Below are positions 1,716-63,083 of a stretch of 64,000 nt of DNA, piece by piece. The first letter of the stretch is position 1. Every line of letters begins with the position of its first letter. Origin of the DNA: Bilabrum cf. latius (Eukaryota); contig OZ237769.1 of assembly GCA_965178125.1 (NCBI GenBank), positions 248,001 through 312,000 of the forward strand, written 5' to 3'. Position numbers and translations under genes: made by a program. A model generated the notes under the pieces. That model did not search any database, was not told where the DNA came from, and worked only from the letters and a program-made list of their open reading frames with translations.

Positions 1716-2224
1716 TCACTTCCCGCCATCCCTTCTCCGCTGCTTCCTTGGCCTCTCATCCTCCTCACTCCCATCACCATCCCTCTCTTTATCCCGACCC
1801 CCAGCCTAGCGGCTGCGCACTCGGCCCAGACCCGTCTCACTCCCTGCTGTCCCCCCAACACACAGATCCCCCCGAATCATCGCAGCTTCCTATCCTTGCC
1901 CAACTCCCTGTGCCCCACTCCATGCCTGCCCCACTTCGGCTGACTGCCCCCACCCGCGGTCGGCATCATCGCCCTGGCCTACCCCTGCCCCATCGTGCAT
2001 GATTGCATTAGATGAAGCAGCACCTGCTGACTGCCCCCACCCGCGGTCGGCATCATCGCCATGGCCTACACCTGCCGCATCGTGCATGATTGCATCAGAT
2101 GAAGCAGCACCGGCTGACTGCCCCCACCCGCGGTCGGCATCATAGCCCTGGCCTACCCTTGCCCCATCGTGCATGATTGCATTAGATGAAGCAGCACCTG
2201 CACCTGATTCATTCATATCATGTG

Positions 2225-2284
<60 letters not shown>

Positions 2285-4301
2285 ATTGCTGCTGCTGCTG
2301 CTATTGCTGCTGCTGCTGCTATTGCTGCTGCTGTTCCTGTGGCATCGGGGCACTCTCAGGCCCAAACTGTTCCTCGTCCGCTTGACCTGCCACAAGCACG
2401 CCATAAGAGTCAGCAGATCCGACCGAACCAGACTCCCAACAACGTCCCCTCAGCGAGCCAGGCAGCGACACACCATCTACATCCGTGCCAGACAAAGACC
2501 CGAGCTGGCTGCCGGCATCCTCACTCGTCACACTCCTACCACTTCTCATCCTGTGGTCATGCATCCGGAGCCATTGCCCAGTCAGCCCCGAGTCCATGCT
2601 CCCCGCCACTGACCCGCCATCACGCGCCTCCCCTTCCCGTCCAGCGCTTGCCATGGCCTCGAGCTGTCTGTGCACGTCAGTGGCATCGGCGTCGCACGAA
2701 TAGTCTATGCCAGTGCCAGCCAGGTGGCTCGTCAGCGGTGCAAGGCGTGCTGCTGGCTGCTGCCTCGGGCTGCGTCTGCTCCTCCACTGATCCTGATCCT
2801 GCACTTGCAACCGGTGTTGCCGGGACTACGTCGCACGGGGTGGGGCAAATCTGCGGCTAGACTCCACCGATCCTGAAGCGTGTGACGAATACAGACCGGG
2901 TCCATCACGACCGTCCATTGTATTCAGGTTCAGTGCCCCCTCCCCGTCCCTTGTTGCCCCCCCGATTACCACGCTCCCCACGGACCCCTCGCTGCTGGGC
3001 GTCCCTCCATCATCGCTATCATCTCTGACGTCGTGCTCGTCTCTGCCGCCGCGCTCAACGTCTTGTCCACCGCGCTCAACATGGTCGGCTTGTGCCACCA
3101 GAGGGGTCCAAGCGGACGGAGAACGCGAAAAGATGGAGGAGGACGGCTACTAGGAAGTGTTCGGGCGTCGGATGGACAGGGGGGGTGCAGTGCCCCACGC
3201 CCTATGGGCTGTTCCCCGTCTTGTTCCCTGAGCAGGAGCCTGGATCCCACTTGTAGGATATTGTGCAGCTGTTCCCTCACCTACCCTGCCTGATTCACCA
3301 AGCCACTGAAGCCTCTGCTCGAGCGGCGCCTCCTCGCCCTCGCCCTCGCCCTCGCCCTCGACCCCATGCGCAAACACCGCGTCTTCAACGCCCTGCTAGT
3401 GCTGGTGCTGCTGCTGGTGCTGCAGTCGGCTGGACGTATCCACGCCCACGGGACTTCTCCGGGGGTCCAGTGGGCTCCCACTCATGCTGAGCCTTCCCTC
3501 CCACTGCTCCCCCCTCGCGTACTAATGTCGGTTCTGCGGGCTAAACTCGGCCTGCACTGTGGCAGCATCAGCGGCATCGGGAGGTGCATCGGACCATCCA
3601 TTGCCAGCTCCAGCCACGCCGAGCACGCGCCCGTGACCAGCCACTGGGAGTGCGAATACCTAATCATCGTGTCCACCATGGCTATCTTGCAGACTGCGAC
3701 GGCCTGCAAAAGCCAAAGACGACGATGTAGATGAAGATGAGACAGTAATTGCCACACCGCGAGCCCAGGCTGCGGCCTGCTGTGCTGATGCTGATGCTGA
3801 TGCTGGTGCTGGTGCTGATGCGTGGCCTTTCGGATGCGATCCTGCCTGGACTTCTGCAGCTGCTGCCTCCAATGCTCTGGGTGACGGTCTCAAGATCTCG
3901 GGCATCTGGGATGGATCCCCGGTGAGGATGGCCTCGCCCAACCATTTGGTAAATTGGCTCTTGGATGATTTGATCCTCTCCTTGATCTAGGTAGCGAGTG
4001 GGTCAAACCATGGCTTCTTATTGATATGGCTCCTGTTGAGAGCTTTCTGCGTAGCTTCCAGGTCCTTCTTGGCCATTGTTTGAGCCTCGATCAACTCGGT
4101 CGATCCGGGCTAGAATCGTCGAGCCGCTGCGATCATTCTTAGAGCGATCGGCTGCACTTTCTAAACATAATTTGTTCCTTTAGAATTCGCACCTTCAATG
4201 GTCGAAAGCCACGTTTGCAGGTGACCTGGCCGCTAGGACTCGGGGACTCTTAGGCCTGTCGTGCCGCCGCCCTGACGACCCGGTCGCGGATCTGCTTCCA
4301 T
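1716..4301 (-). CDS. Tandem family member B, 861 aa, with polyQ and low-complexity tail (TAG read as sense)
   Basis: One frame from ATG 4301 to TGA 1716, interrupted only by 15 TAG (e.g. 4233, 4161, 3660, 2319, 2301, 2283). Joins ORF-track pieces 3660-3941, 3150-3377, 2826-3098, 2319-2810 and 1890-2216. Has the family motif FTKWLGEAILTGDPSQMPEILRP and a basic end RPRKQRRRDGGK. Confidence 0.8.
1940..2200. repeat. About 3 copies of an 87-bp coding repeat
   Basis: GATGAAGCAGCAC recurs at 87-bp spacing. Encodes GAASSNAIMHDGAGVGQGDDADRGWGQSA on the minus strand. Confidence 0.85.
2226..2333. repeat. (CTG)n/(CAG)n microsatellite encoding polyQ on the minus strand, with three CAA-TAG interruptions
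   Basis: Seen directly. The minus strand reads cag cag caa tag cag cag cag cag caa tag... Confidence 0.95.
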
Positions 4302-5581
4302 GATATATATATATCAAGTGTCACCCGCAATTATATGTCTGGACAGCGACAGTCTGCGCCATTGAGCCAATACGATAAAGGGCGTCGGTGGCAAAAATTG
4401 TTCAGCATCCCAGGCAAACTGAATCCTATCACAACCCGGGCAACTTGGGCCAAAAATGATTACATGATACTATACTTAGCTCACTCTATGGCGGTGCAGC
4501 GTTCTTGTTAAGAGCTTGTAGCCAGAGCGATATGACGCCGGTGCCCGAGTCCACCGAGTATCTCAAAGATGCACTTTTCATTGATCAGAAAATGACACTG
4601 CGTAGCACTAGCGTTGCGACGCCTGTAGGAGCCATTGGCCCCATTCAAATCGTCCAGTCACCCAACAAACTTTTACATTCCACTGGATCAGAGCATATCA
4701 CGAAAATGGCTTGACGCTAGGATCCAGAGAGAGGCACTGGCGGCGTAGACAGGAGTGCGAGAGACCCGGCCACGGCTGTGCACTGAATTAGTACAGCGGA
4801 AGGCGAGTCCAGCACTGCAAATCCACGCTATCCTCCCGCCGGGCTAGTCAGGGCACGAACTTCCCCTACACAACGATACACGGAGACGGTATGCTGTTGG
4901 GGAGGGCCTCCTACCACCCCCCTCACCCCCCTCCCGCATGGTCCCATTTTGCATGTTTCATTGGCACTGGACTGCAAGGTGGGGTATCCAAAAGGGATTA
5001 CATACGACACTAAGGCTGCTCGGGGCGCAAACTACGGCCATCTGTAGTAGTCGCTCCCGCACGTACCATGCCGCACAAGTCTACCAAGTCTGCTCGCGCA
5101 AACTGCGTGAAGTCACCAAAGTGGTCGCGAGATGAAACTTTGCTTGATCAGGTCTTTATTATTCAAAGAATTTGACAGGAAACCGGAAATCGAAGAAAGA
5201 AAGTCGGACTCGGAGCCTCGACAAGACTTTTCCCACCTCAAAAGCTGCGATTCACAACTACAACTTGCCACACAAACAGAAAGCCGTAGTTGCAGAGGCA
5301 GCTTTATCACCTGCTTGACAATCATCAAGACACTCTCAGGACAGAGATATCCACTTGACGAGCCAAGACCGTGTTTCCAAAACGCCAGTTGGCCGTGGAA
5401 TTTGCAAGGTTGGTTGTGTTCTCAGCGGTAGTTGCACCAATCCTTGCCTACCTAGATTACCCTGGGTAAGTGAATGCCCCAGTAGTTCTCGTAGTACCTG
5501 GACCACATATTCAATTATTAATTTCCTGTCTCGAAAAGCATGAAATCCGGACGTTGCAGGAAGGGGTACTGACTTGACAAC

Positions 5582-7375
5582 ATGGCAGAATTCAAAGCAT
5601 CCGATTTCAACGGGAACTGGTCAGGAGCGAAAACCGCAAAGTGCAAGTCCAGTAGTGACTTACACCGCAGGCACGCCCTGGACAAGGAGATACTGGCTCA
5701 GAGGCTGAACTTGATCACGGACAAGGCCTCTCTGCCAGAGAGAGACTTTAAGGCATTGAGGAAGATGGTCAATGACGGGACCATCAACATGCACAGCCAC
5801 CTGTCAGCTGCCCAGAACGTAGGGCTAACTGCATTGCAGAGAGACAAGCTGGGAATTCCTTACACGCGATCGGTCTCGGACAAGAGCAGCGTGGGCAAAA
5901 TCGTATCGTCTGCAAAGACTGGCACCCAGGCAGTGCTGACAAGCCAGGAGGCCTCCCACCAGCTCAAGGGTGTGCACACTCTGGTACTGGCAAAAGGTAA
6001 GTACCCGGAGATATCGGAGCTGCTGGACGATTTGATCGCGGCATCCATCGCTCAGCTCAACAATGCGTACGTCGTCCACTGCAAGCGGCACCCTGACGGG
6101 AGCAAGGTGTCATTGGGCGAGAGGATCGAGAAGGACCTGCTGCGGAAAGACGGAGCTCACGCCCTGTCAAAGACCAAGGCGAAGGTGGCACAGCTCAACA
6201 AGGGCGTCAAGATCGCCAGTACATCATCCGGCCCGGCAAGGGGAAAGAGCAGTAGATCGTCCGGCCCGGCAAGGGGAAAGAGCAGTAGGTCGTCCGGCCC
6301 GGCAAGGGGATAGAGCAGAACTGCTGTCAAAGCCAGGGACGTGGTAGCTAAGGTCAGGGGTGTCGTTTCTAAAGCAAGGAGCAGTGCCGCGACAGCTCGA
6401 AGCATCGGTGCCAAAATGATAGGTGCCCCAAAGGGAAGCTCGGACACGGGCAAGAGGGGGACTGGTCGTGGCATTGGTAGGAGCAGCAACCTGCATACCA
6501 GCAAGCGCACCACTGCACGAGACACCAGCAGGCGCACCGCTGTTTGGGACACCAGTGGGCGCACCACCGCACGAGACACCAGCAGGCGCACCGCTGACTG
6601 CGACACCAGTGGGCGCACCACTGCACGAGACACCAGCAGGCGCACCGCTGTTTGGGACACCAGTGGGCGCACCACCGCACGAGACACCAGCAGGCGCACC
6701 GCTGTTTGGGACACCAGTGGACGCACCACCGCACGAGACACCAGCAGGCGCACCGCTGACTGCGACACCAGTGGGCGCACCACTGCACGAGACACCAGCA
6801 GGCGCACCGCTGACTGCGACACCAGTGGGCGCACCACTGCACGAGACACCAGCAGGCGCACCGCTGTTTGGGACACCAGTGGACGCACCACCGCACGAGA
6901 CACCAGCAGGCGCACCGCTGACTGCGACACCAGTGGGCGCACCACTGCACGAGACACCAGCAGGCGCACCGCTGTTTGGGACACCAGTGGGCGCACCACC
7001 GCACGAGACACCAGCAGGCGCACCGCTGTTTGGGACACCAGTGGACGCACCACCGCACGAGACACCAGCATATTCGGACATTTGTGGGCCGACAGATCTA
7101 TTCTGCCACTCGCGGGGCCCTATGAGGCGCAGAGGCGTCAAACGAGCACTTACGTGTCATAGCGAGCGCCCACAGCAGACTGGTTTAGCCGCGGCATCCA
7201 CACAGTCGTTGCCCCTCCCACCATACCCATGGCGCCGGTTGCCCCAGTGATGACTGGACCATCCTTCACCTCTGGAACTGTGGTAGGGTATTCGGCACGA
7301 GGGCATGCGATGTACACGGGCCCGAGGGGTGGGACGTACCACGTCTCTCCAGGCGGCAACCGGGTATACCACTGA
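5582..7375 (+). CDS. Hypothetical basic protein, 597 aa, with 18-aa tandem repeats and a C-terminal PBCV basic-adaptor-like motif
   Basis: ORFs 5582-6313 and 6341-7162 are in the same frame, separated by TAG 6311. Reading through TAG 7160 reaches TGA 7373 and adds GYSARGHAMYTGPRGGTYHVSPGGNRVYH. Confidence 0.75.
6505..7069. repeat. 54-bp (2 x 27-bp) coding minisatellite, about 10.5 copies
   Basis: Alternating cgcaccac(t/c)gcacgagacaccagcagg and cgcaccgctgtttgggacaccagtgg(g/a) or cgcaccgctgactgcgacaccagtggg. Encodes RTTARDTSR-RTAVWDTSG/RTADCDTSG. Confidence 0.95.
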
Positions 7376-7564: not shown

Positions 7565-9259
7565 TCACTCGACCCGGGTGCGCTTGGCCATCCTATGCGA
7601 ACGGCCAAAGTGTTCCTCACCCGGCTGTGGCTGGAGCAAGTCGCCCGACTCTCCAGCGCCGAACGAAGGTTGGCACGCAGGGCTGTGACCGCCTGCTCGC
7701 TCCTGGTCCAGGTTAATCTCAGCGCGGTCTCGCTTCCTGCCTATCGGCAGACGCGCGCTTGTTCTACCAGCAGCACTGAAAGTCGTCACGATTAGGCTAG
7801 CTGCTCCCGCACCCGCATCGATACCAGCCACACCTGCACTCGTGCCTGTACCTGTGGTGAACTCCCTCGATTGGGTCTCGCTCTCCATCGAGGCCATAGA
7901 GACAGCGCGGTGGCGGGCCCGGGACACGGCTGCCTCTGCCAGACACTTCAGATTGGATGGCTGCCGCCCGCTCGCACGCAAGGCTCGCCAGGAGCCAACG
8001 ATCGGTTGCATGGCTTGCTGGGGTGCAGGAGGACCCATTGCAGCACCGATTAATCGCTGGCCATACTGACCAGATCCACGCGCCTGTTGAATGACACCGT
8101 CAGTGGTTTGTCTTACAATTGCAATCTCATCTCGACTGAGCTCGGCGGACCATTGTCCGGATGTATCTGGCCTGGATGGGTCAGAAGGGATCCGGACTGG
8201 CTGCATGTGGCACATGCCCCGCCGAAAGGCAGCTTGCACCATGCGCTCAACCGATCGGGCGGGGTGTCCAGCCTCAGAGTACGTGCCCATCAAGTGATGC
8301 ACGTGTCGCGGGTCGTTGGCTGCAGCCAGGCGACGCGCACTCCCAGGAGGGAATGTTGCAGGGAAGTGCTCCTCCCGTGATGACGATGGTTCGGGATCAT
8401 GCGACAGCACTGGATGTGTCCACGATGAGGATGATGACGATGTTTCGGGATCATGCGACTGCACTGGATGTGTCCAAGATGAGGATGATGACGATGGAAC
8501 GGGATCATGCGATAGCACTGGATGTGTCCATGCCGAGGATGACGAGGATGACGAGGATGACCACGCACATGAATCCGGCCGTGCGTTGCCCATGCTAGTG
8601 AAGATCGCATCGGTTTGGAGCACCGGGGCAGCGCCATGGTCCACCACCTTGCTGCTGGACGCGGATGCAACGCTGCCTAGTGGGCCACTACCACGTAGTG
8701 CACCAGCAGATGCAAGGCTGCTTAGCTGGCCAACCCCGATCGTGCCCTCGCGGTTCAAGGTTGCAGTACCACTTGAGGCACCATCAAGACCTCCGCGATG
8801 CGGCTCAGCAACATCTAGATCCAACTATTCTGTTTGATGGACGGCAGGCTGCTTCAAAATGGGTGGCATGAAGTCAGGATTGCCCTGCAGAATCGACTAT
8901 CCCAGCCAACGTGTAAACGTATTCTAGCGGATACCAGCTTTTTCGCTGAGTTTTTTGCGCAGTTCGCCATACCAGCAGACGTTCTTATACTTGCTCCGTA
9001 GCAGGGCTTTCTGGCTGCTGCGCAATCTCTTCTGCAGCTGTTGCTGGAGTGTCTCTCGAGCTTTTAGGTGGTCGAACTTGCCCGACTGGTAGGCCTGCGA
9101 GCTTATGCTCGCAATCTCTTGGATCCTTTCTACGTACTTCGCTCCCGCTGGACATGAAATTTGAGTTTGCGTCAGCCATGTTTGCAGCTTGGTCACTTGT
9201 GCTGGCTTGAGAAGCGTTGGTGTCCAGACTGCTGAATCTCTTTGGGCGCTCGTTTCCAT
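7565..9259 (-). CDS. Tandem family member C, 564 aa
   Basis: ORF 8924-9259 continues through TAG 8924, 8897 and 8825 (GIR*NTFTRWLG*SILQGNPDFMPPILKQP) into ORF 7565-8824, which ends in TGA. Contains a 57-bp repeat (x3) at about 8380-8555. Confidence 0.8.
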
Positions 9260-9913
9260 GTTCCTTTCTACGATAGAGTAAGAACGGTCACTCTTGCATT
9301 ATAAACCATACTATTTCGGTTAATACGAGCAACCATGAGTTTGGTACCGTTCTAGGTAACTCAATGCCACGTTCCAGTGGAAAATCAAGAGTGTAGTTGT
9401 CAGTACAAAGCACTACTGACAGGCAATTATAAGCATTTGTCGATCAATCAGAACCATACTCACAGTGTATCTCCAATTATTTCTGTTGGCTTTCTCAATG
9501 TAAACAAATTTCGCTCAATAGCAACCATCGAATTCCCCGAAGTCTCCTTGGACATTCGACTCCGAATGGCGTGGGCAAACACCTGTGCACAGGCAGGCAG
9601 GTATATGGCTGCGTCATGAGGCGTACCAACGCGACGCTGGACATCTGCCACTACTAGAGCTAGTAGGCAAGGACATTCACGCCCTTTGTTCGCTGTGATC
9701 ACCACTGTAGATAGGCTTACAGCGAGCAGCCAAGATATGAGCGCAACGAGCGCTGCCAGCTTGATTGCGATCCGCTGCACGTAACCTGTCCAACTTGACC
9801 AGCGCAAGACTACCGCCAACCAGAAGTCCGAATATGGGGTGCATCTGAGTCATATATATTCCAATTATCAAGCCAAAATTAGTTGTCTGAAATTTTTCGA
9901 AGCACTGCGACCA

Positions 9914-11207
9914 TCACGTCCGCCTGCTCTTCAAGACCTTCTCTTGATCATCCTGCTCCTCAAAACCAGTACCCGGACATTCGCTACCAGTGGTGGCAAC
10001 ATCACCAGTACCAGTGGTAGCCGCTGCGTTTCGCACACTGGCACCGGCACCGGATGATACTTGACTGTACCCGTCACTCATCTCTGATACTGCTACTCGT
10101 GCCGATTCCTCTGCCATCTCCACTTCGTCCCTGTCACGCTTTGCTCCGATCACCGGTGGTGCCCCTGCGCCTGCACCCCCATGCATCCCAGCACCCACTG
10201 GCTGGCCCTGCCCCGCGCCTGTACCCCCATGCATCCCAGCACCCACTGGCTGGCCCGGCCCCGCGCCTGCACCCCCATGCATCCCAGCACCCACTGGCTG
10301 GCCCTGCCCCTCGCCTGTACCCCCATGCATCCCAGCACCGACTGGCTGGCCCTGCCCCGCGCCTGTACCGCCGTGCATCCCAGCACCCACTGGCTGGCCC
10401 GGCCCCGCGCCTGTACCCCCATGCATCCCAGCACCGACTGGCTGGCCCGGCCCCGCGCCTGTACCCTCATGCATCCCAGCACCCACTGGCTGGCCCGGCC
10501 CCGCGCCTGTACCCCCGTGCATCCCAGCACCCACTGGCTGGCCCTGCCCCTGCGCCTGTACCCTCATGCATCCCAGCACCCACTGGCTGGCCCTGCCCCG
10601 CGCCTGTACCGCCGTGCATCCCAGCACTTACTGGCTGGCCCTGCCCCGCGCCTGTACCGCCGTGCATCCCAGCACCCACTGGCTGGCCCTGCCCCGCGCC
10701 TGCACCGCCGTGCATCCCAGCACCCGCTGGCTGGAGCCCATCGAGAAGTCTCTCTACTGTACGTGGTGCTGGTCTCAAGATCTCGGGCATCTGGGATGGG
10801 TCCCCTGATAGAATGGTCCTGTGCAGCCAAAGATCAAAGGTGTGTTGACGCAACCATGGAGCCCGCAGCGGCATGATTTTGCACAGCCTAGAGTACCAGT
10901 GAACCTTGTTAATCTTACTTCTGTGTAAGCCTTTCTGGATTTCCATGAACTGGCGTCGTAGCGTGGTGATGTCCGCCTACCTCGCTATGTCCGCTGCAGC
11001 TGCATCCATCGTTGCACGCCGTCTTGCCAACGCAATGCTATACGCAGCAAGGTCTTGTATTCTATGCGCGTATTCTCGCCCTCTCTCCGAGTGTCGTTGA
11101 ATGCAGTACAGCCATGCCTGGACCAACCGGTTGCGTTCATCAGGCAGTATTCGATACCGGCGGAGTTGAGGTTGGCACCGCGCAGGCCGTCCACTACCCT
11201 TTTTCAT
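9914..11207 (-). pseudogene. Tandem family member D, with a 1-nt frameshift in the VNTR (pseudogene or assembly error)
   Basis: Near-identical to member E. Starts MKKGSGRPARC and has TAG at 10977. An extra base in a repeat unit near 10551 shifts the frame from ORF 10467-10946 to ORF 9914-10627. Confidence 0.6.
10165..10735. repeat. 48-bp VNTR, about 12 copies
   Basis: Encodes GAGMH(G/E)G(T/A)GAG(P/Q)GQPV on the minus strand. The same unit recurs at 11820-12290 and 13365-13557. Confidence 0.95.
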
Positions 11208-11580
11208 ATCTGCACCAGCACGTTCAGATGCTGCTTCGTAATGTTTTGTCGCGATGTATGATACCTGCGGAAGCAACAATCACGCATAATTTTCTATTTG
11301 CTTTGCTGGCAGTGATATCACAGGAATGTCGTTGCATGCGTATCCACAACGGATCTCTTCAATCGGCGAGCTGTCTGGATACTATTGAACCCTCTCACCT
11401 CAGTGCGACAATAACAATGTGCTCCGGTGACTTGTGCGTTCTCAAGAATCCAGATCTGATCTGTCTGTCGGGTTTGGCCGGGTGCAGCGCACGCAGGCGA
11501 TTAAATCAAACCGGAAAAATCAGCGTGTTAAACTTTGAATGCGATGCTCTATTTACAAAATATGTGCTGCACTGCGACCA

Positions 11581-12762
11581 TCACGTCCGCCTGCGCTTCG
11601 AGCCCTTCTCTTGCTCATCCTGCTCCTCACAACCAGTGTGCTCGCTGCCAGTGGCTGCATCACCAGTACTAGTGGTAGCCGCTAAGTTTCGCGCACTGGC
11701 ACCGGATGATGCTTGACTGCACCTGTCACTCATCTCTGATACTACCACTCGTGCCGATTCCTCTGCCATCTCCACTTCGCCCCTGTCACGCTTTGCTCCG
11801 ATCACCGGTGATGCCCCTGCGCCTGTACCCTCATGCATCCCAGCACCCACTGGCTGGCCCGGCCCCGCGCCTGCACCCTCATGCATCCCAGCACCCACTG
11901 GCTGGCCCTGCCCCGCACCTGTACCCCCGTGCATCCCAGCACCCACTGGCTGGCCCTGCCCCGCGCCTGCACCCTCATGCATCCCAGCACCCACTGGCTG
12001 GCCCGGCCCCGCGCCTGTACCGCCGTGCATCCCAGCACCCACTGGCTGGCCCGGCCCCGCGCCTGCACCCTCATGCATCCCAGCACCCACTGGCTGGCCC
12101 GGCCCCGCGCCTGTACCCTCATGCATCCCAGCACCCACTGGCTGGCCCGGCCCCGCGCCTGCACCCTCATGCATCCGAGCACCCACTGGCTGGCCCGGCC
12201 CCGCGCCTGTACCCCCGTGCATCCCAGCACCCACTGGCTGGCCCGGCCCCGCGCCTGTACCCCCGTGCATCCCAGCGCCCACTGGCTGGAGCCCATCGAG
12301 ATGTCTCTCTACTGCACGTGGTGCTGGTCTCAAGATCTCGGGCATCTGGCTTGGGTCCCCTGATAGAATGGCATCGTGCAGCCACCGACTGAAGGTGTGT
12401 CGACGCAACATTGGAGCCCGCAGCGGCATGATGTTACACAGCTCAGAGTACCAGCATACCGTATTAATCTTACTTCTGTATATGCGTTTCTGGATTCTCA
12501 TGAACTGGCGTCCTAGCGTGGTGATGTCCGCCTACCTCGCTGTGACCGCTGCAGCTGCATCCATCGTTGCACGCCGTCTTGCCAACGCAATGCTATACGC
12601 AGCAAGGTCTTGTATTCTATGCGCGTATTCTCGCCCTCTCTCCGAGTGTCGTTGAATGCAGTACAGCCATGCCTGGACCAACTGGTTGCGTTCAGCAGGC
12701 CGTATTCGATACCGGCGGAGTTGAGGTTGGCACCGCGCAGGCCGTCCACTGCCCTTTTTCAT
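11581..12762 (-). CDS. Tandem family member E, 393 aa
   Basis: ORFs 12532-12762 and 11581-12501 are in frame, joined across TAG 12532. Has WYSELC...FSRWLHDAILSGDPSQMPEILRP, then the 16-aa repeats, and ends KRRRT-TGA. Confidence 0.8.
11820..12290. repeat. 48-bp VNTR, about 10 copies
   Basis: Same unit as 10165-10735. Confidence 0.95.
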
Positions 12763-13128
12763 ATCTGCACCAGCACGTTCAGATGCTGCTTCGTAATGTT
12801 TTGCCGCGATGTATTATACCTGCGGAAGCAACAATCACGCATAATTTTCTATTTGCTTTGCTGGCAGTGATATCACAGTGTCGTTGCATATCCACAACGG
12901 ATCTCTTCAATCGGCGAGCTGTCTGGATACTATTGAACCCTCTCACCTCAGTGCGACAATTAAAATATGCTCCAGTGACTTGTGCGTTCTCAAGAATGCA
13001 GATCTGATCTGTCTGTCGGGTTTGGCCGGGTGCAGCGCATGCAGGCGATTAAATCAAACCGGAAAAATCAGCGTGTTAAACTTTGAATGCGATGCTCTAT
13101 TTACAAAATGTGTGCTGCACTGCGACCA

Positions 13129-27278: not shown

Positions 27279-27328
<50 letters not shown>

Positions 27329-44803: not shown

Positions 44804-44970
44804 TTACGATAGTGGGTATGTACGTCTTGAATCTGCGATTCCCCAGTATATTTCTGGGTGGGTGGAGCTCGGCAGCGGAACAACTGGTGAAGGTGAATCG
44901 CGCGGTGCCATCATGACCTCCACTCAGCAGCGGAGCTCCCACAATCGCATTCGCCACCTTGAAATTGAGC

Positions 44971-48887: not shown

Positions 48888-49353
48888 ACATCTCAATGAA
48901 TAAGCTCTGGTCAACCTGCCGGTTGGTAATTGCTGAGAAAGCCGGCGATGGGGACGGGGTGAGCTGGCCCGTACCAGCCTCACCCGAGGTCTGCCCCCCC
49001 ACCATCACGTCCCGGTCGTCGTCAGGGAACGTGAGCTCCCTGCCGGCAGGTTTTATATCAATCACACATAAAACACATCAAGCAGGGACCAGTTGGCCGG
49101 ATCAGCAGGTAGCATCCTGCACCGCAGCCAGTCTGTCCTGTTCGGAATCAGTCGGGCCTGATCCCAAGTCTTACCGGCCCGTCCTGTGACTTGAGCTGGC
49201 TTCCTGGCCCAGCGTCTGACTTCCTTGGATGTACACGCTACCCAGTCAACATCTACATCTTCCTTTCCGCCTGCACACATTCAACCGTAGCACTTGCATT
49301 TAGCGACCATGTCATAGGCATACCTACGCACGAACTAAGGCGCTCATCAGTGA

Positions 49354-52300: not shown

Positions 52301-52632
52301 TCCAGATGCCCAAAGGAGCCCGCATCGAGCTGTTGTGCGGCCATATGGCTGATGGCTGCACGACACGAGGCCTAATCGCAGTCCAGAGGGAGCCTCATCG
52401 GCCGAATCTCGGAATTCGACGACATATTCGCAAGCATAAATGTACTTTGTCCAACCTGAGCGGCATAGTGGACCTGCAACTTATTGGTGGGGCTGTTGGC
52501 GACTGGAGATTCGCACGTGATAGACATGGCGCGTGCGCAGATGGAATCTAGATCCATCATGTTTGTGGGGTGCGCGCGAGCCCCTGAGCTCGCAGTGAGA
52601 GCACATATTGCAAACAATACGACTAGTACCAT
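49354..52632 (-). CDS. Type I membrane protein with FG-GAP (integrin-alpha-like) repeats, 1092 aa
   Basis: Signal peptide MVLVVLFAICALTASSGARA. About six repeats of QKISSTQGGF...FGSSVASLGDLDGD...AVG...GAVWIL, then an SPS/T stalk, a TM segment and a short tail. One frame with 10 TAG (52372, 51841, 51568, 51277, 51256, 51202, 51124, 51100, 51094, 50869); ends in TGA. Confidence 0.85.
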
Positions 52633-55105
52633 TCGACTGCGAGATAAGGATGGATGGAAGCGGTGAAAGGGCCACTCATTCACTTTCTTCCCCTTGGCGC
52701 AGCAGATGCTGTCAGTTTGCGCCTAATTCAATGCGCATATGGCCAGTGCGTCGCACCAGGCAACATCATCAATATTATATATAAGTGTGATACTATGTGC
52801 ACACGATGCTTACATTGCTCTTAGTCTCGAGCTTCACACGCCAATTAATTGGACCCCCGGTGGGGCACACCAGGAAATATGAATTAATGCAAACAAAACA
52901 AACGCAACAAACAAAGAAGGCCGGGCGCCACGGTGCCACGTGCAAGGACAAGCGTGTCAGCGGAGGCCTTCCAGGCCGCAGGCACTTCCGGGTGCTCAAC
53001 GTGCTCGAGCAGGTGGTCCGCGAGGCCACGGGCAGACGCCCTATCCGGGAGCCAGAGGCACTTGGGTAATAATTTCTGAAATATGTCTATGCCAGGCGTA
53101 CAGAAGTGTTTTTTGGATTGTTTAGGATACCCAAGCTATCATATTATACTATTTACACATGTATGTAACACCTAAAGGTGATAAAGAGTTCATTATGCGC
53201 CGATCAGTGACTTTGTATGCTAGCAGCTGCTGCGCCACCAGGCACCCTTTCCATGATTTCGAAGCTATATTGCGTCTGAATGACCTCATATTTGATCAAT
53301 ATTGTCATATATATATACACTAGTATTGTAGCAAGTATGAACCAATTTGAGTGCAGTGAAAGTATGGACGTGTGTTCAATGTGCTGTTGGCGAACACATG
53401 CTGCATATATGAAGCTTGGGCCAAATCTGTTCGCAATAATAATAGTTCAGCACCTGGTACATACTAATAGATTAATATATTAGAATAAATGGGCAGCAGA
53501 TAGTGCTTTCATGAAAATATAAGGAAGTTTTGACTCTAGGAACAGAGTCCCCAAGTTGGTGTCTGACGCTTTCCAGACTATGTGGTTCAGTCTACAATTC
53601 CATGCTGAATCTGCAATCACTTCTAGTTATACCTCATTCTAGCGCACTAAAGTGCACGTAACTATACCGGGGAGCTCGACTCACCGGCACTCACAAATAA
53701 TAGCAAATAAGCATACAATAGTACCAAGTGAGAGCTTCCTAGCGAGACAATTGGACCAGATCAGCTGATCTAATCCGATTATCTTCTTGCCTGCCACGCT
53801 GACAGACCCCGAAGGGCAGTCAGCATGGCCGTTGCGGGCCTGCAAAGGGGGGCCATCAAACAAGACTACCCCCTGGGATGATGGGTGGAGGTGGGAAACC
53901 ACCACCACCTTGTGTAGTAAACAAGTGCAACCTAGAATGCGTGACCCCACAGATCTTGTCGTGTAGTAAGTGTGACGAGCACGCCCACACATCTTGGCGT
54001 GTTTGGCACAAACTCCTATTTTACGCGAGATTTAATGAGTATTATTTGGGAAGTCTTTGCTTGAAGTATTTATATATATCGTAATCGTAGTATGGTGAGG
54101 AGTAAACCTCGAAGTAGGCTTCATGCACTGTACTAGGGCTGTGTACCGTACGTGTTGGATCATCTTTACTTTTGATACTTAGATGCGGGCCGATTTGTAT
54201 GAAACGTAAACTACGACTCTCCCAACTAAGCCACATATAGCATGTACATGTGTGATTGGCTCTATTTTATGCTTTGCGTCACTTTTGTGCACTGAGTTGA
54301 AGCCGGAGGTTGGATCGATTGGGCATCATAACTACGTGCACTTTGCATGATGCATGCAGACCAAACTGATTCGATTTTTGCGTTGTTTTGGTTTTTACTA
54401 TTATAGGCCTCATCATATTTGGAGTTTTACCGCTCCATAATCATACATTACTGAGGTCGTTGCCAGTGGCCAGATTCACTGGCTGGTACACATGAGACAG
54501 AGTCGCCCGACTTGGGCATCCATGAGAAAGCTAGAGACTGAAAACGCACTCTTGGTAAAATTAGAACTTCATTGAACCATTGGTATGAGTGAATCTACTG
54601 TTGATGCATTATTGAAGGAGCATAAACGGTAGTTGTTCGTGTCGCTGGCTGACCTAGCACCTCGTGTCACTGAACCAGGTCCCAGGCCATTATTCAGGGT
54701 GGTAGATAACTCCGACCTAGCCGGTTGGATAGAATACCAATCTATGGCATGATTTCAGGTACAGGAAATTGCAGAACAGCAAACGACTTCGGCACAGGAT
54801 ACATGCTTCGCGCACCTCTACCGACAAAAGAATTCAAGACGATCTGTCAGTCCTGAGCTCTTCCACCCCGAATGGAGGCGATTGACTGGAGAAATGCCAA
54901 CCTCCACTCTTCGTGGCCTGCCTCTTCCGTTAATCAGATTACGATGTCTAACGCTACAATTCCTCTTCCCACCTACGGACAAGGTGTTGCGGCGTTCTCC
55001 TTCTTCGCAGAGCCATCCTCATCGCACAGACGCTTATCATCTCATTTGACGTCAACAACGAATCAGACTCTGTCTCCTTAATACCAGGATTCTGACGGTG
55101 CTGCC

Positions 55106-55222
55106 AGCGCTGTTTAGACCGGACCAGAAGCGCTGTTTAGACCGGACCAGAAGCGCTGTTTAGACCGGACCAGAAGCGCTGTTTAGACCGGACCAGAAGC
55201 GCTGTTTAGACCGGACCAGAAG
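55106..55222. repeat. 23-bp perfect tandem repeat x5
   Basis: agcgctgtttagaccggaccaga repeated head-to-tail with no spacers. Confidence 0.95.
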
Positions 55223-55708
55223 TCCCCAACCCGACGGGGTCGTTGGACGCCAGCACTTCGGCCAAGCTCAGCCTCCTTAGCCTGTGGGTGAGGCAGCGGC
55301 CGGAGGTGCAGCAAACGTGGTTGCTGAGGCGGCGCCGGGGGCAGATAATGCTGCAGTCGCCGCAGCCGAAAATGATGCAGATCAGGGCGAAGCTAACGTT
55401 CCACATGCAGCCCCACAAGCTGCCGGCGGGGCCGGAGCGGGGGGTCCTGCGGAGCATAAGGCGGCTGAGTTGGAGGCAGTGTCACTGCCCGACGACGTTC
55501 GCAAGCTGATCCTTGAGTGTGCGTTCTGGCCCGAACGTGAGACAGCGCTTCGTAGTATGAATCTAGATTAGAAAAGGCGAGCCGCATTTTCTCTCTTCCT
55601 AATGGAGACTATGAATGTATCCTCCGCCTGGACCAACGATTCTGGTCAAGGGAAAGTGTTTGCTTTGTTGTATCGCCAGCCGTCGGATTCTCGTGTTCCG
55701 CGCGAAGC

Positions 55709-57835
55709 TGCCAGGCGCAAGACAGTCGTGTTGCTCATCACTTCCAATTATACGGCATTCTAGCGCCTGCAGGTGCACGCAACATGGATCCGAGCCGGGC
55801 ACGCCGGACCACTCGTACCACCCTTACCTGTCCCCGCGCCCTTTGCTCCCAGTTCCGAATCCTCGGAAGTGGCCAGGGGTCCGCTGTCGGCTGCCCTCGG
55901 TCGGCTGATCTGTCGGCTGTGTGATCCTGACCCCGAAAGGCGCATGCGGCTGCACGAGGCGTGGGTGTGTGACGAGTGGGTGCTGTGGGCCAGGAAGCTT
56001 GAGATGGCGGCCAGCGGACGACTATGGGAGGGCTACACAGGTGTGACGAGCGAAGATGCCTTGGAGGACGGTAGCGGCTTTGGGGTGGTGAGGGTGTGCA
56101 GCGCACCCGGCGGCATCGGTGGCGGCGGTGTGACGAGTGAGATCGGTGGCTGGTCTATGCAGCGCTCTCTGTCCTCCTTCAGGTCGGTGCCTCCCTTGGC
56201 GGGCGGTACCCTCCGGCTGCGAGCGAGCACGATGGCCGGAGCAAGTGCTCGGGCGGTGGGACGGAGCTCCTCGAGCCAGTCCTCGGTAGTAGAGAGGAAT
56301 GGGTCGATCAGCCCATAGAGGTGCAAGGGTGGCGCGTGCTCATCTTCTCCCACCGGCGGCGCTTTCGGAGCAAGTGCTCCGCGTTCGCCTGGTTTCATCG
56401 CGAGGAGCAAGAGCGGGGGCGATGGGCTGGAGGGGACGGCCAAGGTTGCCCGGCTGCTCTGAGATTGATCCAAGCATGCGTATATAATGTGAATGTGCAT
56501 TACTAAATATGAGTTTGTTGGTTGGTACCTTGTAAACAATTCCCGTTTCACAGCAAAGTGTGACATGTCTCCCCAGTTGATGAGTGCAGTGGTGACTAAC
56601 TCGTGAACAGTCTGATGTAGTGAGAGCACCCGTAGAACAGGAATTGGGGTCGCAAACAGGGCGCCTCAAAGGGTGTGTGTATTCAGCACTCCGGGTGCCG
56701 CGCCTTTCAGAGCGCCAGCGCACTGCAACTGTCACCGGTCCATCTCATCGCAGCACGAGCTGAAGCATGTTTGCCCGAAGTACTACAACGATAGTCAGTT
56801 TTGGTGATCGAGTCATAGAATTAGCAGAGAAATATCCGCGAGGCAGCCCCAATGATGGCCGTCAAAAGGCAGGGCGTCGAAGGTATCTAAATCTGCGGTC
56901 CACTGGAGCTTCCGCGGCGCGATTCGCCGAAGTTGCAGAAATTATAGAAAGAGGCAGCAATCGTTTGCGTTGCTTAGATCTTCGGAACGACGTAGCAAAA
57001 GTAGAGTCCGTTCTCGCAGCCCTGCCAAATACGAACGTCCGCGCTTTATCCTGCACATGTGAAGAAACTGATGCTGCTGTCCCAGGACTTATATCATGTT
57101 TGATTCCCATGTTGGGTGAATCAGGCGTACTGGCCCGGGTATAGCACTTGGCACTGCATGAATGCGGGCTCACAGCAGACTCTGCTCTCGAACTTGTCGA
57201 AGCAATCGGTTCCGGGCGGCTCAAAAGCCTCACTTCGATTGATCTTACTTGCAACGAAAGCATTGGTGGCTCAGCAAAGCCTGAAGCAGGTGCATAGCTC
57301 GGTCGCTCGGCATTCGCTGCCGGGCTTGCAAGCGTTCTCGGAAGCGGGGGGCCAAGCTGCCGGCTGCAAGAGATTCGCCTAGCGCAATGCAAGCTGCCAG
57401 TAATCGATTGTACCACAATTTTGCGCGCTTTGCACGGCACTGATACCCTAAAAGTCCTCGACTTGAGTGAGAACCACATGTCCGACGCATTGAACACGCT
57501 TGACTACGAACCAATCTTGGACGCACTCGAGCACGGGCTACAGGGCAACTGCTCGCTGCAAGTGCTCGGGATCGGTGGCGAAGCAACGGAGGTACATAAA
57601 GTGGAGCAGGTCCTCGGTGTTGTGTGCCGGCTCTGCGTTTCGCTGCGCTGCGTCTGCTTGTGGTCTTAGATGGAACCAGGCGAGGAGTACGACAGCTTTA
57701 CTTCGGTGCTGGCTGTGACACAGGCAGCAGCCCACCCATTCATGTGGATGGGTGGTGCTTGCTCATTTGAAGAAGGAGGGACGCTTGGGTGCACGGTGTG
57801 CGATCCAATCAGTGGCGCGTGGTGCGACGGCCAGT
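55709..57835. repeat. Copy B of the 2-kb direct segmental duplication
   Basis: Matches 46871-48887, with a 99-nt insertion at 55733-55831. Confidence 0.95.
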
Positions 57836-58893
57836 TCATCCCGCAAAATGGGCACCGTGCCTCTGGCAGTGACAGTGGGGTCACAGAGCGGCGGGAGCTC
57901 AACGTGCATCTGCACAGGAGTCATATCGGATACGATATGGAGAAAATGTGGCGGCACCATGGGGTCTCTTCTGCGCCCGTCGGCAGTGTAGGAGTAGATG
58001 GAGAGCTCGACGCTCGGATCCTTCGGGCGAGAACGGCCCTCGGCAAGTGCGTGTGGCAGCTGCGGCTGGCTGCCCGCAAGCTGTTTGAAGAAGTAAATGC
58101 AGACAGGAGGAAGGCGGTGCAAGGGGCTCTCGATGCATGTGCGGGGTTTGTGGAGGAGGTTTTAATCTTTGTTGTGGAGGAGGTCGCAGTGCCATCATTA
58201 TCGGGAGGGGGTGCATCGCATTATGGTGCAGGCGTGGGTACAGCCGGTGCATCTGCTGCGGGAGTTGATGGGGGTGACAGGCTGCGGGAGGAGGTGCTCC
58301 GTTTGCTGTGCGTGCTGACAGACGTGCTGTGCGAGTGCAACGAGCCAGACGCTATCACGTTCCGTGTCGGTGTACCATACGATGACAACCATACGTATTG
58401 GACGCAAGAATGGTCCTGGAGCCAGTACGATGCAGCCTGCGTGTACGATCCACGCGTGGGAGACAGCTTCCCGTACGTGGGAGCGCGGCTGGTCGATTTG
58501 CTACAGGAGGCATGCATGGCTGCGGAGAGGGGTGGGGTAGAGGGGCACAAGAAACTACGGCGGAGGTGGGTGAGGCTGGTAACCATGCGGAGACAGGACA
58601 AAATAGATGCTATGGTTCGGTGGAGGAGGGCGGTGGAGGCCTGGAGGGACGCTAGGTGCGTGTTCCAGGCCGCGAGCGAGGGCAGGCCCATGGAGCTGGA
58701 GAAGCGGCTGGTGCTGGGCGCAAGAACAGGGGTGCTGGAGGCAAAGCAAGACGTTGAGGTGACAGAAAATGGTGTCCTAGTGACTAAAACAGTGACGGCA
58801 ATTGAGGCGGCCAGACTGGGAGGGCATGACGAGTGCGTGAGGGTGCTGCAATAGGTGCAGGATGCCGTGAAGCTGCACTCTATTACGTTATGA
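56767..58893 (+). CDS. RI-like leucine-rich-repeat protein with a C-terminal ankyrin-like motif, about 700 aa
   Basis: LRRs LRCLDLRN, HLALHECGL, LTSIDLTCN and LKVLDLSENHM; C-terminal TAIEAARLGGHDECVRVL. One frame via TAG 57142, 57295, 57667 (may instead be a splice acceptor) and 58852. TGA at 58891. Confidence 0.7.
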
Positions 58894-59132: not shown

Positions 59133-60635
59133 TCATCGTCCCGCGGACGTAGCGCCCGCTCCCGTGGAACCGAGCATGGAAGCACTTGCTCCGAGGCCGC
59201 CTTTCCGTGTCCCCTTCGCTTTCACTTTCGCCCCCGTCGCCGCGGCTGATCCCGGCGCCGCGCCATCCCCAAGTTCCGCAGCCTTCTCGGCCTGAATCTG
59301 CCTGAACTCTGCGACAATCCTCTTCGGCTTGATGTCCCGGAAGTCGCCCGGAGCGAGTGCTTCGATGTCCGAAGACAGTGCGAGCACCTCTTTGGTCGCA
59401 AGCCGGCCCGCCTTGGCGAGCTGCTTGGCGGCCGCGTCCGCGTCTTGAGGCGACCTGTCTGGATACTTGTCCAGCAGAGCTCTGGATAGGGACCGCAATG
59501 CCTTGGCCCGCTCGGCCCGCAGCTGCCGCCTGAGGGAGGTCAGTCGCGCTAGGATGGCTCCGGATTCCACGTCGGTGTGTTCCTCAGGGAACACAGAGGG
59601 CGCGTGCCGGAGCAAAAACGTCACGTCTTCTAGCGTGCGCAGCGATTTGGTCGCCTCGGCTGCGATGTTCCTAGCCTCTTCCGGCTCGACCCTGTCAAAA
59701 TAAAGCGCCCTGACCTTGAGCTCCACCTGAGCCGACAGCTGCTTCCTCGTGTTCTCCCTGGAAAGAGCCTCGTAGGCTCGCCTGGTGCCCGGAGCACTTG
59801 CCCGAAAAAGGTCTTCGTGCAGCAGTCGCTCGGCGTTACGGACTACCGTGCGCAAGGGGCCGAAATCGACGCCTCCTGTGGTGCCAGCTCCACCGCCAGC
59901 AGCAACGGCAGCGGAGGCAGCCGAGGCGCCGCCCGTGGAGGACTTCCCGGCTGTAGATGAGTGAGAGCCGGCGGTGGACCCCATCATCAGGCTCGCCATG
60001 GTTCCGCTAGCACCGGTTCCCTTGCGCGGCGCCGCGCGGCGCCCGGCGGCCGTGGTGCTGGGCGGCGCGAACTCCTCCACGATCGCGGCAACTAGGGACT
60101 CGAGCGCGCGCTTCCCGGCTGAGGTGTCTGCCTGCTCCGGGAACACGTCCCTGGAAAGCCGCAGATAAAGCTTTGCGCGCAGGTCTGCGCGCACGTCTTC
60201 CTCGGCGAGGCGGCTCACCAGCTCGGCTGCTCCCTTATCGGCGGCCGCTTGCAACGCTGGATCCAGGGTCGTGCCTTCCAAGCAGAGGTCGGTCAGATTT
60301 GGAAGTCGGCTGATCTCGCTGGGTAGAACTGCCAGCTCCGTTCGGGACAGGTCCACCGTTCGCAACCTGCTGCACCGGCTGATTTCCTTGCTCACTACGC
60401 GGAGAGGATTGTCCTGAAGCCAGAGGTCTTGTAGGTTCACAAGCTTCCCAATCCCATCCGGCACGGCTTCAATCATGTTATCATTTAGCTCAAGCCTTCG
60501 AATCACCGCCCCTAGTTCGAACACAGGGGGTGGGATGGCTCGGAGGCCCAAACCAGACAGGGACAGCCATCCCGTCACTTTCGCTTCCTATACGCGAGAG
60601 CGCAGCGCCATACTGAGGGGGACGCATTGCGCCAT
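59133..60635 (-). CDS. Leucine-rich-repeat protein, 500 aa
   Basis: ATG 60635 MAQCVPLSMALRSRV*EAKVTGWLSLSGLGL (TAG 60588). Typical LRRs LELNDNMI, LWLQDNPL and VDLSRTEL. Ends in TGA. Confidence 0.85.
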
Positions 60636-60815
60636 CGTGCTGGTATAAATAATAAGGAACCGGTTGATACTACTATTAACCGCAGGAGCTCGGCATGGTC
60701 GTACGCAGCTGTGGCAACACTCTTTGGTCCGTTGGTTGAAGTTTGCTACATTCATCTTCAGTAATGTCGACACCATAATCGAAAGTAAGAAACGAGTACC
60801 CATGCGCAACCACCA

Positions 60816-63083
60816 TTAGATAAGAAAATACTCCTCCCCTTCGAGGCTGCTCCTCACAGATGCCTTGCTCGTCCCTTCCCCACCACTGCCGACGCCGGCA
60901 GCCTCCGCCCCCGCGCCGGCCGCCAGAGCACCCCCCGGATCGGCACCCGCACCCGCGCTCGGCTTCTTTCCTTTCATCGGCGTGCTAGACTCATCCAGGG
61001 CCTTGTTCCCTGCTTTCAGCAGCGCGTCCAGCTCTCCCTCCCAGCCTAGCTCTCGAGCAAGTGCTCGGCACGACTCGTCGCAACTGCCCAGAACCACGGC
61101 GTCTCTCTCCTCGCTGAAATCGCCCACTTTGTCCAGGTTAAACAGGGCCCGGGAGGTCCCTGGGAGCACCATCTCCGGCAGGGAACACACGGGGGCCACC
61201 TTCAGAGACGTGCCCATCACAATGAACAGATCGCTGCCGCCCGACTCACGCCGCAGCTCCCGCAAGTCGAAGGGGCCGCCCGCAAGAGCGGCGCGCACGG
61301 CCGCTGGGTCGCTGCCGCCACTGCGCGGCGCCGGTGCCGCACCCTCCCCGTCCCTGCCGGTGAGGAGTCGCACCAGGTCGCACTGTTCCCCGCACAACTC
61401 GGAATCGTTTCTCACGTCGGCTAGGCATGCCCGCCAGGAGTACTCGTCGGCTGGGACGGTGCGAGCCCTGGCCGCAAGCTCTCTGATCCGCGGGTCACTC
61501 GTCACACCGGTCCGCACGGCCTCGGTCACGACGGGGAGGATCGCCTCCAGGAGCTTCCCCTGGGCTTCCTTGGACTTGTTCACGAACGTTCGTCGGGCCC
61601 GGACGAAGTCTCGCTGGATGCAGTCGTGGAATGAGTCTGGCAGTCCCTCGCCGAAGAAGACGATGTCCGGCTTGGGCGTCGATCCGCACTCCTTGCACCG
61701 AGGCAGCTTGTCCGTATCAAGGAACCTTCGCTCGAGTTCGTCCAAGTCGACCTCCCGGTTGCAACCGGTGCAGTGGGCCCCGCTCATGCCCCCGTGGCAC
61801 TGCATCAGCACGTCCCCTCTGCGAGGAATGCCGGCCTTGTGCTCCAAGCTGTCAATGTTCTGCGTGTAGATCCGCTTGATCAGGCCCTTGTCAAGCAAGA
61901 GCCTTTGGAAATAGTGGCACACAGTTGGCCGCGGACTTGCGCTGGAAAAGAGCATCGTTTTGGCACGCTCGTAGAACGGGCGGGGGCTTTTATGAGTGAA
62001 GAACCGGATGGAGAAAAGATCTTCCGGGGCCGTCATCCCCCCGGGCAGCCCCTCTTTCCTGAGCTGCTCGTACAGTCCACCTTTAGACCGGAAATCGGGA
62101 ATACCCGCCGACACGCTCACCCCCGCGCCCGTCAGCAGAGTCACGCTCTTTACGTCGCCTGCGCGCACCGCCTTTGCGATTCCGGGTAGATCCATCCCAT
62201 GGGTCTCCAGGCATCCCCCCGGCGACAGGTGCATCGCACTGCTGAGCTGCAGCATGGCGCCGTTGCAGTGTGCCACGGCAATGTCCCTGACCCTTGCAGC
62301 CAGCACATCAGCGGGGAGCGAAGCGGGGGCGGGGGCAGCAACGGAAGGAGACGGCGATCCTGACGCGGCGCCGGTTCCGCTTGCAGCCAGACCCTCGTCA
62401 GAGCCCACGGCACCATCGCACGATCCACTCGGATCTGCACCTGCACCTGCCAATGCACCAGGACCATCGCCTGCACCTGCACCAGTCTCTGCGGCAGCTG
62501 CACTGACAATCGCTTCTCCGCCGGCTGGTGCCAGCCCTTCTGAATCGGAGCTGGCGGGGATGATCCCGGCCTGCCGCGCGGCTTGGACGAGCACGTTGCG
62601 CGGGTGCATCTGGCTGTCCGCGTCGGTCGCGTCACCTGCCCCGCCCTCGCCCTCGCCACCAAATTTGGCCTCGCAAAGAGCGTTCACCGAGGGCTGCGTG
62701 TAGTCCGATTCGATATAACTGTCGCATTCGAAGCACCACACGGACAGATCAAGAGCGGACACGGCGATCTGCCCCGCGTGCCTGCCCTCGCCCACTGCCT
62801 CACTGCCGCCCGCCGCTGCTCCCGGATCGGCACCGTACTTTTCTTCGTTAGCCGCCCTCAGCTCATGTGCTCGACGCAGCATGTGGCTCTTAGCGTACCG
62901 CGAGCACAGTACCTAGTGCGTTGACAGGTTGAACCAAACCTCTCCTTCGTGCCCGCATTCTTCGCATGGTTTTGCAACCAGCTCCCGTGCTTTGTCTGGT
63001 GAAATATCCCGAATGCCAGCTTCTGCAACATGCGGACAGTCACGTTTGACTTCAACCGCAAAACCTACCCCGAGGTCGACCAT
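60816..63083 (-). CDS. Class I sirtuin (NAD-dependent deacetylase) with an N-terminal ZnF-UBP domain, 755 aa
   Basis: ZnF-UBP: CPHV..PCEECG..VWFNLSTH*VLCSRYAKSHM..LSVWCFECDSYI. Sirtuin: GAGVSVSAGIPDFRS, YTQNIDSLE, CHG, CxxC/CxxC, KPDIVFFGE and GTSLKVAP. TAG at 62913; ends in TAA. Confidence 0.92.

Follow-up and report, generated by a model that had tools for sequence, protein, structure and literature searches.

In-frame UAG codons, most likely read as glutamine, in a 64-kb window of protist nuclear DNA of probable stramenopile origin

The stretch of DNA analyzed here, 64,000 nucleotides (nt) of contig OZ237769.1 (assembly GCA_965178125.1, forward strand, positions 248,001 to 312,000, deposited as Bilabrum cf. 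latius; hereafter the window, in whose own coordinates all positions are given), is gene-dense eukaryotic nuclear DNA with a G+C content of 51-66%. Its architecture is intron-poor, with long single-exon genes and spliceosomal introns of 90-210 nt. When TAG was translated as X, Pfam domains were detected for a GH113 glycoside hydrolase, a pectinacetylesterase-like (PAE-like) protein, CFAP206, a RINGv protein, a protein kinase and FG-GAP repeats, as well as for leucine-rich repeats (LRR), an RRM protein and a deacetylase combining ZnF-UBP and SIR2; presenilin, ribosomal protein S23 (RPS23) and a DMAP1-like gene complete the set. UAG stands in frame in the mature mRNA of many of these genes, is read through, and is glutamine-like in repeats and paralogues. 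We consider it rather likely that the window is GC-rich, intron-poor nuclear DNA of a protist, probably a non-photosynthetic stramenopile, in which UAG has been reassigned, most likely to glutamine, with UGA as the main terminator and UAA as a minor one.

A total of 22 gene models (15,382 codons) were built on open reading frames (ORFs), six of them being spliced by RNA joints. Together they contain 89 TAG, 0 TAA and 0 TGA triplets in frame, the two zeros being partly built in, as the models are ORF-based. TAG is present in 21 of the 22 models and makes up 12% of the sum of CAG, CAA and TAG. This circularity was checked with six frames having TGA at both bounds, a check that spans part of the data only; they hold 40 TAG and no TAA. 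A preliminary description of the window had reported about 85 in-frame TAGs in about 22 genes with neither TAA nor TGA inside them, a figure close to our count, and the seven sites it named (34459, 40111-40113, 44345, 45136, 46734, 62913-62915 and 36356) are all in-frame TAGs. Its further statement that TAGs fall within conserved domains needs one correction, as some of the sites are not in strongly conserved columns: the TAGs of ZnF-UBP (inside the Pfam match) and RINGv (inside the Pfam stretch) do lie within the domains, and those of CFAP206, presenilin and the kinase lie in variable stretches of the proteins.

Using the standard code, the longest stop-to-stop frame reaches 735 amino acids (aa), while with TAG as sense the longest frames are of 2567, 1151, 913, 865, 840 and 819 aa; the corresponding maximum is 774 aa with TAA as sense and 999 aa with TGA as sense. 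Freeing TGA yields 79 frames of at least 300 aa, as compared to 45 when TAG is freed. Lengthening of frames is weak evidence when taken alone, because TGA is the commonest stop triplet in this GC-rich DNA and its release lengthens frames too; it is the RNA and the paralogues, and not frame length, that carry the case for UAG as a sense codon. The density of TAG is uneven, with 0-1 per gene in the conserved RPS23, presenilin, CFAP206, DMAP1 and SIR2 genes and 9-15 per gene in lineage-specific or fast-evolving ones (1716-4313, 13129-15588, FG-GAP and PAE-like), a distribution that fits CAG-to-TAG transitions at weakly constrained sites.

Four public runs (X1, X5, X6 and X7, from four studies) were aligned to positions 29500-49499. 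No matching public run is registered as RNA, and X5 and X7 were judged to be RNA-like from the behaviour of their alignments. X1 and X6 behave as DNA. In X5 and X7, which come from the two other studies, seven joints with GT..AG or CT..AC ends were found (33769-33882, 37653-37789, 39507-39719, 39985-40084, 42732-42824, 44009-44160 and 45231-45319), all of them absent from X1 and X6; the depth ranges from ~3 to 4640, with its maximum on RPS23. At 40553, where the minus-strand RPS23 has its 3' end, a poly(T) loose end marks a poly(A) site. Because of these intron joints, the depth range and the poly(T) end, we take X5 and X7 as derived from complementary DNA.

Contigs of these two runs span nine TAGs in five genes (30831, 31026, 34459, 40113, 44345, 45136, 45906, 46734 and 47379), six of the nine being spanned by X7. 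The TAGs are unchanged in the exons of the contigs, no differing letter being listed within 29500-46900, and complete spliced ORFs are obtained only when TAG is read through, namely for CFAP206 (754 aa), DMAP1 (672 aa), the kinase (829 aa) and GH113 (597 aa); likewise the presenilin transcript is complete, from its ATG to a C-terminal TGA, only with TAG readthrough. The preliminary description had named transcripts with CAG or TGG, or with spliced-out sequence, at the TAG sites as contrary evidence; instead, all nine TAGs were found intact in spliced RNA-like contigs. In the five RNA-covered genes the TAGs cannot be put down to introns, RNA editing, assembly error or pseudogenes, since the spliced transcripts keep TAG within full-length ORFs.

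One low-depth contig of X7 agrees with the window as far as 34458, directly before TAG 34459, and continues with 255 letters; a chimera formed in GC-rich, low-complexity sequence is the probable cause. Apart from this contig nothing specific speaks for the TAGs being untranslated, whether through pseudogenes, sequencing or assembly errors, unrecognised introns, RNA editing or mere low-level readthrough, and the diverging letters themselves occur nowhere in the window. We find such an explanation hardly credible: the TAGs are identical in contigs of all four runs from four studies and lie within exons of spliced RNA-like contigs, TAG occurs in 21 of the 22 genes with neither TAA nor TGA beside it, and the duplicated genes described below are under purifying selection.

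A second line of evidence comes from a segmental duplication, whose copies (46894-48712 and 55831-57629) show 95.9% identity along 1819 nt. It covers the kinase gene at its 3' end together with the 5' part of an LRR gene, and TAG is kept in both copies at 47379/56316 and at 48378/57295. Downstream of the kinase TAG at 47379 all three substitutions between the copies are synonymous, and TGA ends both of them. Moreover, the C-terminal tail QEKGLKSRRT that follows TAG 13164, the last TAG of the 13129-15588 gene, is conserved in its paralogues. Translation thus continues past TAG, given the synonymous changes after 47379 and the conserved tail after 13164. The claim of the preliminary description that UAG is a sense codon is therefore borne out by RNA-like contigs from two studies, by ORFs that exist only with readthrough and by TAGs kept in duplicate copies with synonymous changes downstream. 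The kinase tail of the second copy lies within a frame (55050-56462) having a different upstream part.

The same data bear on the idea that UAG is ambiguous, being sense within genes and a context-dependent terminator elsewhere, as in Condylostoma, karyorelicts and Blastocrithidia. Our models read through TAG by construction, and TAGs 13164 and 58852 lie 11-13 codons before TGA, both of which would suit such a code. We regard it nevertheless as very unlikely, as none of the 22 models needs UAG as a terminator, the tail after 13164 is conserved, the changes after 47379 are all synonymous, and TGA closes RPS23 and presenilin, whose RNA contigs continue beyond it.

The tandem family to which the 13129-15588 gene belongs forms an array of five minus-strand paralogues (1716-4313, 7565-9298, ~9917-11279, 11581-12813 and 13129-15588). 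An N-terminal domain of ~150 aa, with invariant W, L and Y residues and the motif '...SFTKWLGEAILTGDPSQMPEILRP...', is conserved among them, and most members carry GAGMHGGTGAGPGQPV repeats followed by a basic C-terminal tail. Comparison of the family to Pfam gave no significant match, the single hit being a weak, sub-threshold one to TFIIA on a poly-Q region. In the member at ~9917-11279 the frame shifts inside the GAGMH repeat block, and this may reflect a pseudogene, an unrecognised intron or an assembly error by repeat collapse. Table 1 lists the coordinates of the features.

Table 1. Coordinates and main characteristics of features in the window.
Feature	Positions	Strand	Characteristics
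Tandem-family gene, lineage-specific	1716-4313	-	861 aa, 15 in-frame TAG, TGA end
Paralogue of the 1716-4313 tandem family	13129-15588	-	812 aa, 10 TAG, TGA end
Unbroken frame of 2567 aa	21501-29204	+	TGA on both sides; 13 TAG (12 past the first ATG), 0 TAA
GH113 glycoside hydrolase mRNA, unspliced	29578-31431 (gene 29592-31391)	+	TAG 30831, 31026; ends at TAA 31389-31391
Pectinacetylesterase-like (PAE) gene	31768-33744	-	9 TAG, TGA end
CFAP206	33661-36039	+	754 aa; intron 33769-33882; TAG 34459 in RNA-covered exon; TGA end
RINGv (RING-variant) protein	36185-37027	+	TAG 36356, 36413, 36671; TGA end
Presenilin	38331-40452	-	Introns 39507-39719, 39985-40084; TAG 40111-40113 in 5' exon; TGA end
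RPS23 exon	40933-41358	-	0 TAG; TGA end; very high RNA depth
DMAP1/SWC4-like	42540-44803	+	Introns 42732-42824, 44009-44160; TAG 44345; TGA end
Protein kinase	44947-47525	+	Intron 45231-45319; TAG 45136, 45906, 46734, 47379; TGA end
Segmental duplication, copy 1	46894-48712	+	Copy 2 at 55831-57629; 95.9% identity
Secreted FG-GAP repeat protein	49354-52809	-	1092 aa, 10 TAG, TGA end; TAG 50871 in KISSTxGGF repeat motif
LRR gene	56764-58893	+	4 TAG including 57142; TGA end
ZnF-UBP + SIR2 deacetylase	60816-63557	-	TAG 62913-62915 in ZnF-UBP domain; frame ends at TAA 60816-60818

Regarding the two other stop codons, UGA is clearly a stop and the dominant terminator, TGA ending 20 of the 22 models and TAA the remaining two, GH113 and SIR2. 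UAA is probably kept as a stop, on the basis of these two genes. The CAA/CAG ratio is 151/484 (31%), so that TAA used like CAA would give ~28 in-frame TAAs, against the 0 observed. Applying a code in which TGA is the only stop, TAAs in real coding frames were confined to the few codons preceding the first ATG and to the stretch past the end of the coding sequence. In GH113 the RNA contig ends at 31431, 40 nt past the TAA, and the depth of X5 drops from 50 to 3.3 one bin further on. Reading past this TAA, one meets an in-frame TGA first at 31638, 249 nt beyond it. On the 3' side of both TAA terminators the G+C content falls to 0.47-0.49 and that of third codon positions to 0.55; the 200-nt 3' flanks of genes ended by TGA have 0.45-0.56 in six of the seven compared, with RPS23 at 0.67. 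The preliminary description had stated that both UGA and UAA remain stops. The first part of this claim stands firmly; the second is backed by the lack of internal TAAs and by one RNA contig end, but is less firm, with TAA ending just two models.

An alternative in which both UAG and UAA encode glutamine and UGA is the sole stop (table 6 type), UAA being rare through GC-richness, would account for the prevalence of TGA ends and for a TAA terminator with RNA support being found in one gene only. It would also agree with UAA and UAG being usually reassigned jointly and with the ulvophytes having TAR-to-Gln, which use TAG more than TAA and in which TGA is the only stop seen (PMC2984419). Yet no TAA was found beside 89 TAGs, nor in the TGA-bounded frames with their 40 TAGs, the GH113 RNA ends shortly past its TAA, and the composition is non-coding right after both TAAs, so that we consider this alternative unlikely. 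One window leaves room, nevertheless, for UAA being rare or unassigned. Only ~200 nt, in one frame (60620-60818), separate the SIR2 TAA from the ATG of the LRR gene that follows on the minus strand, and a TGA-only code would fuse SIR2 and this adjoining gene into a frame of 1474 codons.

To which amino acid UAG corresponds was judged from sites where close comparisons are available. Five TAGs are flanked by Q on both sides, and TAGs 2321, 2303 and 2285 interrupt one run of ~42 Q in the 1716-4313 gene. In the 95.9%-identical duplicate CAG 48225 aligns with TAG 57142, and TAG 50871, at the variable position of the KISSTxGGF motif of the FG-GAP protein, corresponds to Q, Q, Q, Q and E in five other repeats. 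As for homologues, TAG 30831 of GH113 is opposite Q in a Physarum transcript, the best eukaryotic homologue (36% identity), and TAG 62915 is opposite Q (human-type chains) or K in HDAC6 ZnF-UBP domains. Summing BLOSUM62 values over 14 sites gave 32.7 for Q, 24.9 for E, 15.3 for K, 0.3 for S and -30 for L. This score took close paralogues, internal repeats, the closest relative and the alignments of GH113 with Physarum and of the HDAC6 ZnF-UBP domains as input; the columns of distant homologues of PAE, presenilin and CFAP206 and a BLASTP tally within the window were excluded from it. Judging by these alignments, glutamine is most likely the best reading of UAG, a residue that the preliminary description had not named, with glutamate as the main alternative.

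Several results weigh against this reading as a whole and join the built-in zeros and the scarcity of TAA ends (two of 22 genes, one of them with RNA support) mentioned above. In the presenilin column opposite TAG, the residues are T (21), S (10), Q (9) and I (9) of 68; nine PAE columns compared to 60 distant homologues show mainly A or L, and the CFAP206 column S and A. An all-against-all BLASTP within the window, dominated by low-complexity matches, placed G (16), E (15), A (12) and Q (9) opposite TAG. The closest relative found, a database protein here called P0001 that matches the PAE-like gene at 79% identity along 376 residues, carries T, K and Q opposite three of the TAGs. A codon-usage log-odds score on the flanks of TAGs was passed by 13 of 941 TAG triplets, being too weak and having one training ORF out of frame. 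The automated label given to X5 was "RNA? (probably DNA)", and X7 was also just guessed as "RNA?". Finally, a tRNA scan and an Rfam scan of the window gave 0 tRNAs and 0 Rfam families, and eRF1 is not among its genes, so that neither the suppressor tRNA nor the release factor was seen within these 64 kb.

With respect to the alignment columns, the TAGs appear to lie mostly at variable positions, where alignments with distant homologues do not discriminate. The C-terminus of P0001 falls exactly at TAG 32235 of the window, which suggests that the relative behind it also has a standard-code stop triplet at this position. A TAG position common to both would further suggest that this relative uses the code proposed here.

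A sense UAG encoding another residue would most plausibly stand for glutamate, as in the ciliate PL0344, then for lysine, with serine (Scotinosphaera) and leucine (the rhizarian exLh) as further options. Glutamate is second in the 14-site score, E or D is found opposite TAG in several paralogue columns, and two of the three P0001 residues (K and T) would suit this view. Against it are the five TAGs in pure Q runs, the direct pairing of CAG and TAG in the duplicate, and the rank of E, which falls outside the eight residues most often seen next to TAG; serine and leucine score 0.3 and -30, and neither is found opposite TAG in close paralogues. Altogether we judge another residue quite unlikely.

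A reassignment of UAG to glutamine with UAA kept as a stop could, by analogy with other UAG-only codes, be achieved by a tRNA-Gln whose anticodon is CUA and which descends from the tRNA for CAG; it would decode UAG alone and could not read UAA. eRF1 would have lost or weakened its recognition of UAG, keeping that of UGA and UAA, and new UAG codons would then arise from CAG by C-to-T changes, mostly at weakly constrained positions.

The lineage of the source was approached with the presenilin exon. Among its best 120 matches there are 20 organism-named rows, and all 20 are stramenopiles, including Cafeteria, Nannochloropsis, oomycetes, Ectocarpus and diatoms. A quick maximum-likelihood tree without outgroup was built from the query and 32 of these matches, 33 rows in all (ten organism-named ones, those with dataset codes or generic labels, and the top unnamed ones). 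The query was located outside oomycetes and ochrophytes, beside Cafeteria, a protein of MMETSP0115 and a protein of transcriptome shotgun assembly GECG01, with a Shimodaira-Hasegawa-like approximate likelihood ratio test (SH-aLRT) value of 83. Both datasets are presumably from bicosoecids, and placement among heterotrophic bigyran flagellates is only a lead. Judging from this one gene, the source organism is probably a stramenopile. An origin from a ciliate or a green alga was rejected, as the organism-named presenilin matches are all stramenopiles, in agreement with the earlier remark that the genome does not look like that of a ciliate. Look-ups in the Atlas for the DMAP1 and CFAP206 clusters gave no lineage signal, and no relative turned up among metagenome contigs scanned for the presenilin exon and for P0001.

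Among the codes described so far, that of the fornicate Iotanema spirale, an unrelated anaerobic metamonad, is similar in that UAG alone is reassigned, to glutamine, with UAA and UGA as stops; UAG is a minority glutamine codon in both (~8% there, 12% here), and a tRNA-Gln(CUA) is predicted for both (PMC5304391). I. spirale has UAA as primary terminator, whereas the genome here is GC-rich, its genes point to a stramenopile and UGA ends 20 of 22. Phyllopharyngean ciliates, two lineages of which have UAG=Gln, and Protocruzia tuzeti also share with the window a code of NCBI table 15 type, UAG being uncoupled from UAA; they keep UAA, which ends 87-98% of their genes (PMC11687900), in contrast to the dominant TGA, the spliceosomal introns of 90-210 nt and the long single-exon genes seen here. 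The UAR=Gln code of table 6 is known from ulvophytes, hexamitids, an oxymonad, an aphelid (Amoeboaphelidium) and many ciliates (PMC2984419, PMC5304391). With these lineages the window has in common the change from stop to glutamine, TAG being commoner than TAA and TGA being the usual terminator; it differs from them, in which TAA is glutamine and TGA the sole stop, by the absence of in-frame TAA and by its two apparent TAA ends.

UAG is uncoupled as well in Scotinosphaera (UAG=Ser), in exLh and one phyllopharyngean lineage (both UAG=Leu), and in PL0344 (UAA=Lys, UAG=Glu). The amino acid is a different one in Scotinosphaera, exLh and PL0344, and serine and leucine score far below glutamine here. 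The list of known cases in the preliminary description was incomplete, as Scotinosphaera and Protocruzia had been left out. A search of full-text literature on stramenopiles and the genetic code, which covered few subscription journals and was judged by titles and abstracts and by passages of one preprint, returned no report of a nuclear code change in this group.

An independent origin of this UAG-to-Gln code is likely. The suggestion that the origin is both independent and undescribed is plausible and not proven, the placement coming from one gene and "undescribed" being provisional. That the window represents the first nuclear code change in a stramenopile, an independent UAG-to-Gln reassignment with UAA retained in a GC-rich flagellate having UGA as dominant terminator, we see as an evenly balanced proposition. 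We may be looking at the reassignment fairly early in its course: genes that evolve fast and are lineage-specific are rich in UAG (up to 15 in 861 codons), and conserved genes have few (0-1 each).

In the literature covered, very few nuclear codes give UAG and UAA different meanings, those of Iotanema, one rhizarian, Scotinosphaera, Protocruzia, some phyllopharyngean ciliates and one oligohymenophorean being listed, and such cases bear on the mechanistic coupling of both codons. If true, the code proposed here would be an independent replicate outside ciliates, in a group without a known record of code changes; a GC-rich genome with mostly UGA ends would test the idea that reassigning UAG alone requires UAA as the main stop, and a new pair of eRF1 and tRNA-Gln(CUA) would be available for study. 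Annotation with the standard code would truncate most of the genes, and the database seems to hold such truncated proteins of a relative, P0001 being the example.

Other features of the window were also noted. A putative frame of 600 aa at 5573-7375 on the plus strand contains two TAGs and consists mostly of an 18-residue tandem repeat (TSRRTAVWDTSGRTTARD-like units); it is overlapped by several long frames on both strands. The N-terminal 510 residues of the FG-GAP protein, which hold its 10 TAGs, had no homologues among proteins of near length, and for the last DMAP1 exon the PDB offered nothing but a chance match. GH113 is patchily distributed: the Physarum transcript is its best near-length match, and of the four other organism-named matches three are bacterial and one is archaeal, the remaining rows carrying no name. 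Such a distribution hints at horizontal transfer or repeated loss.

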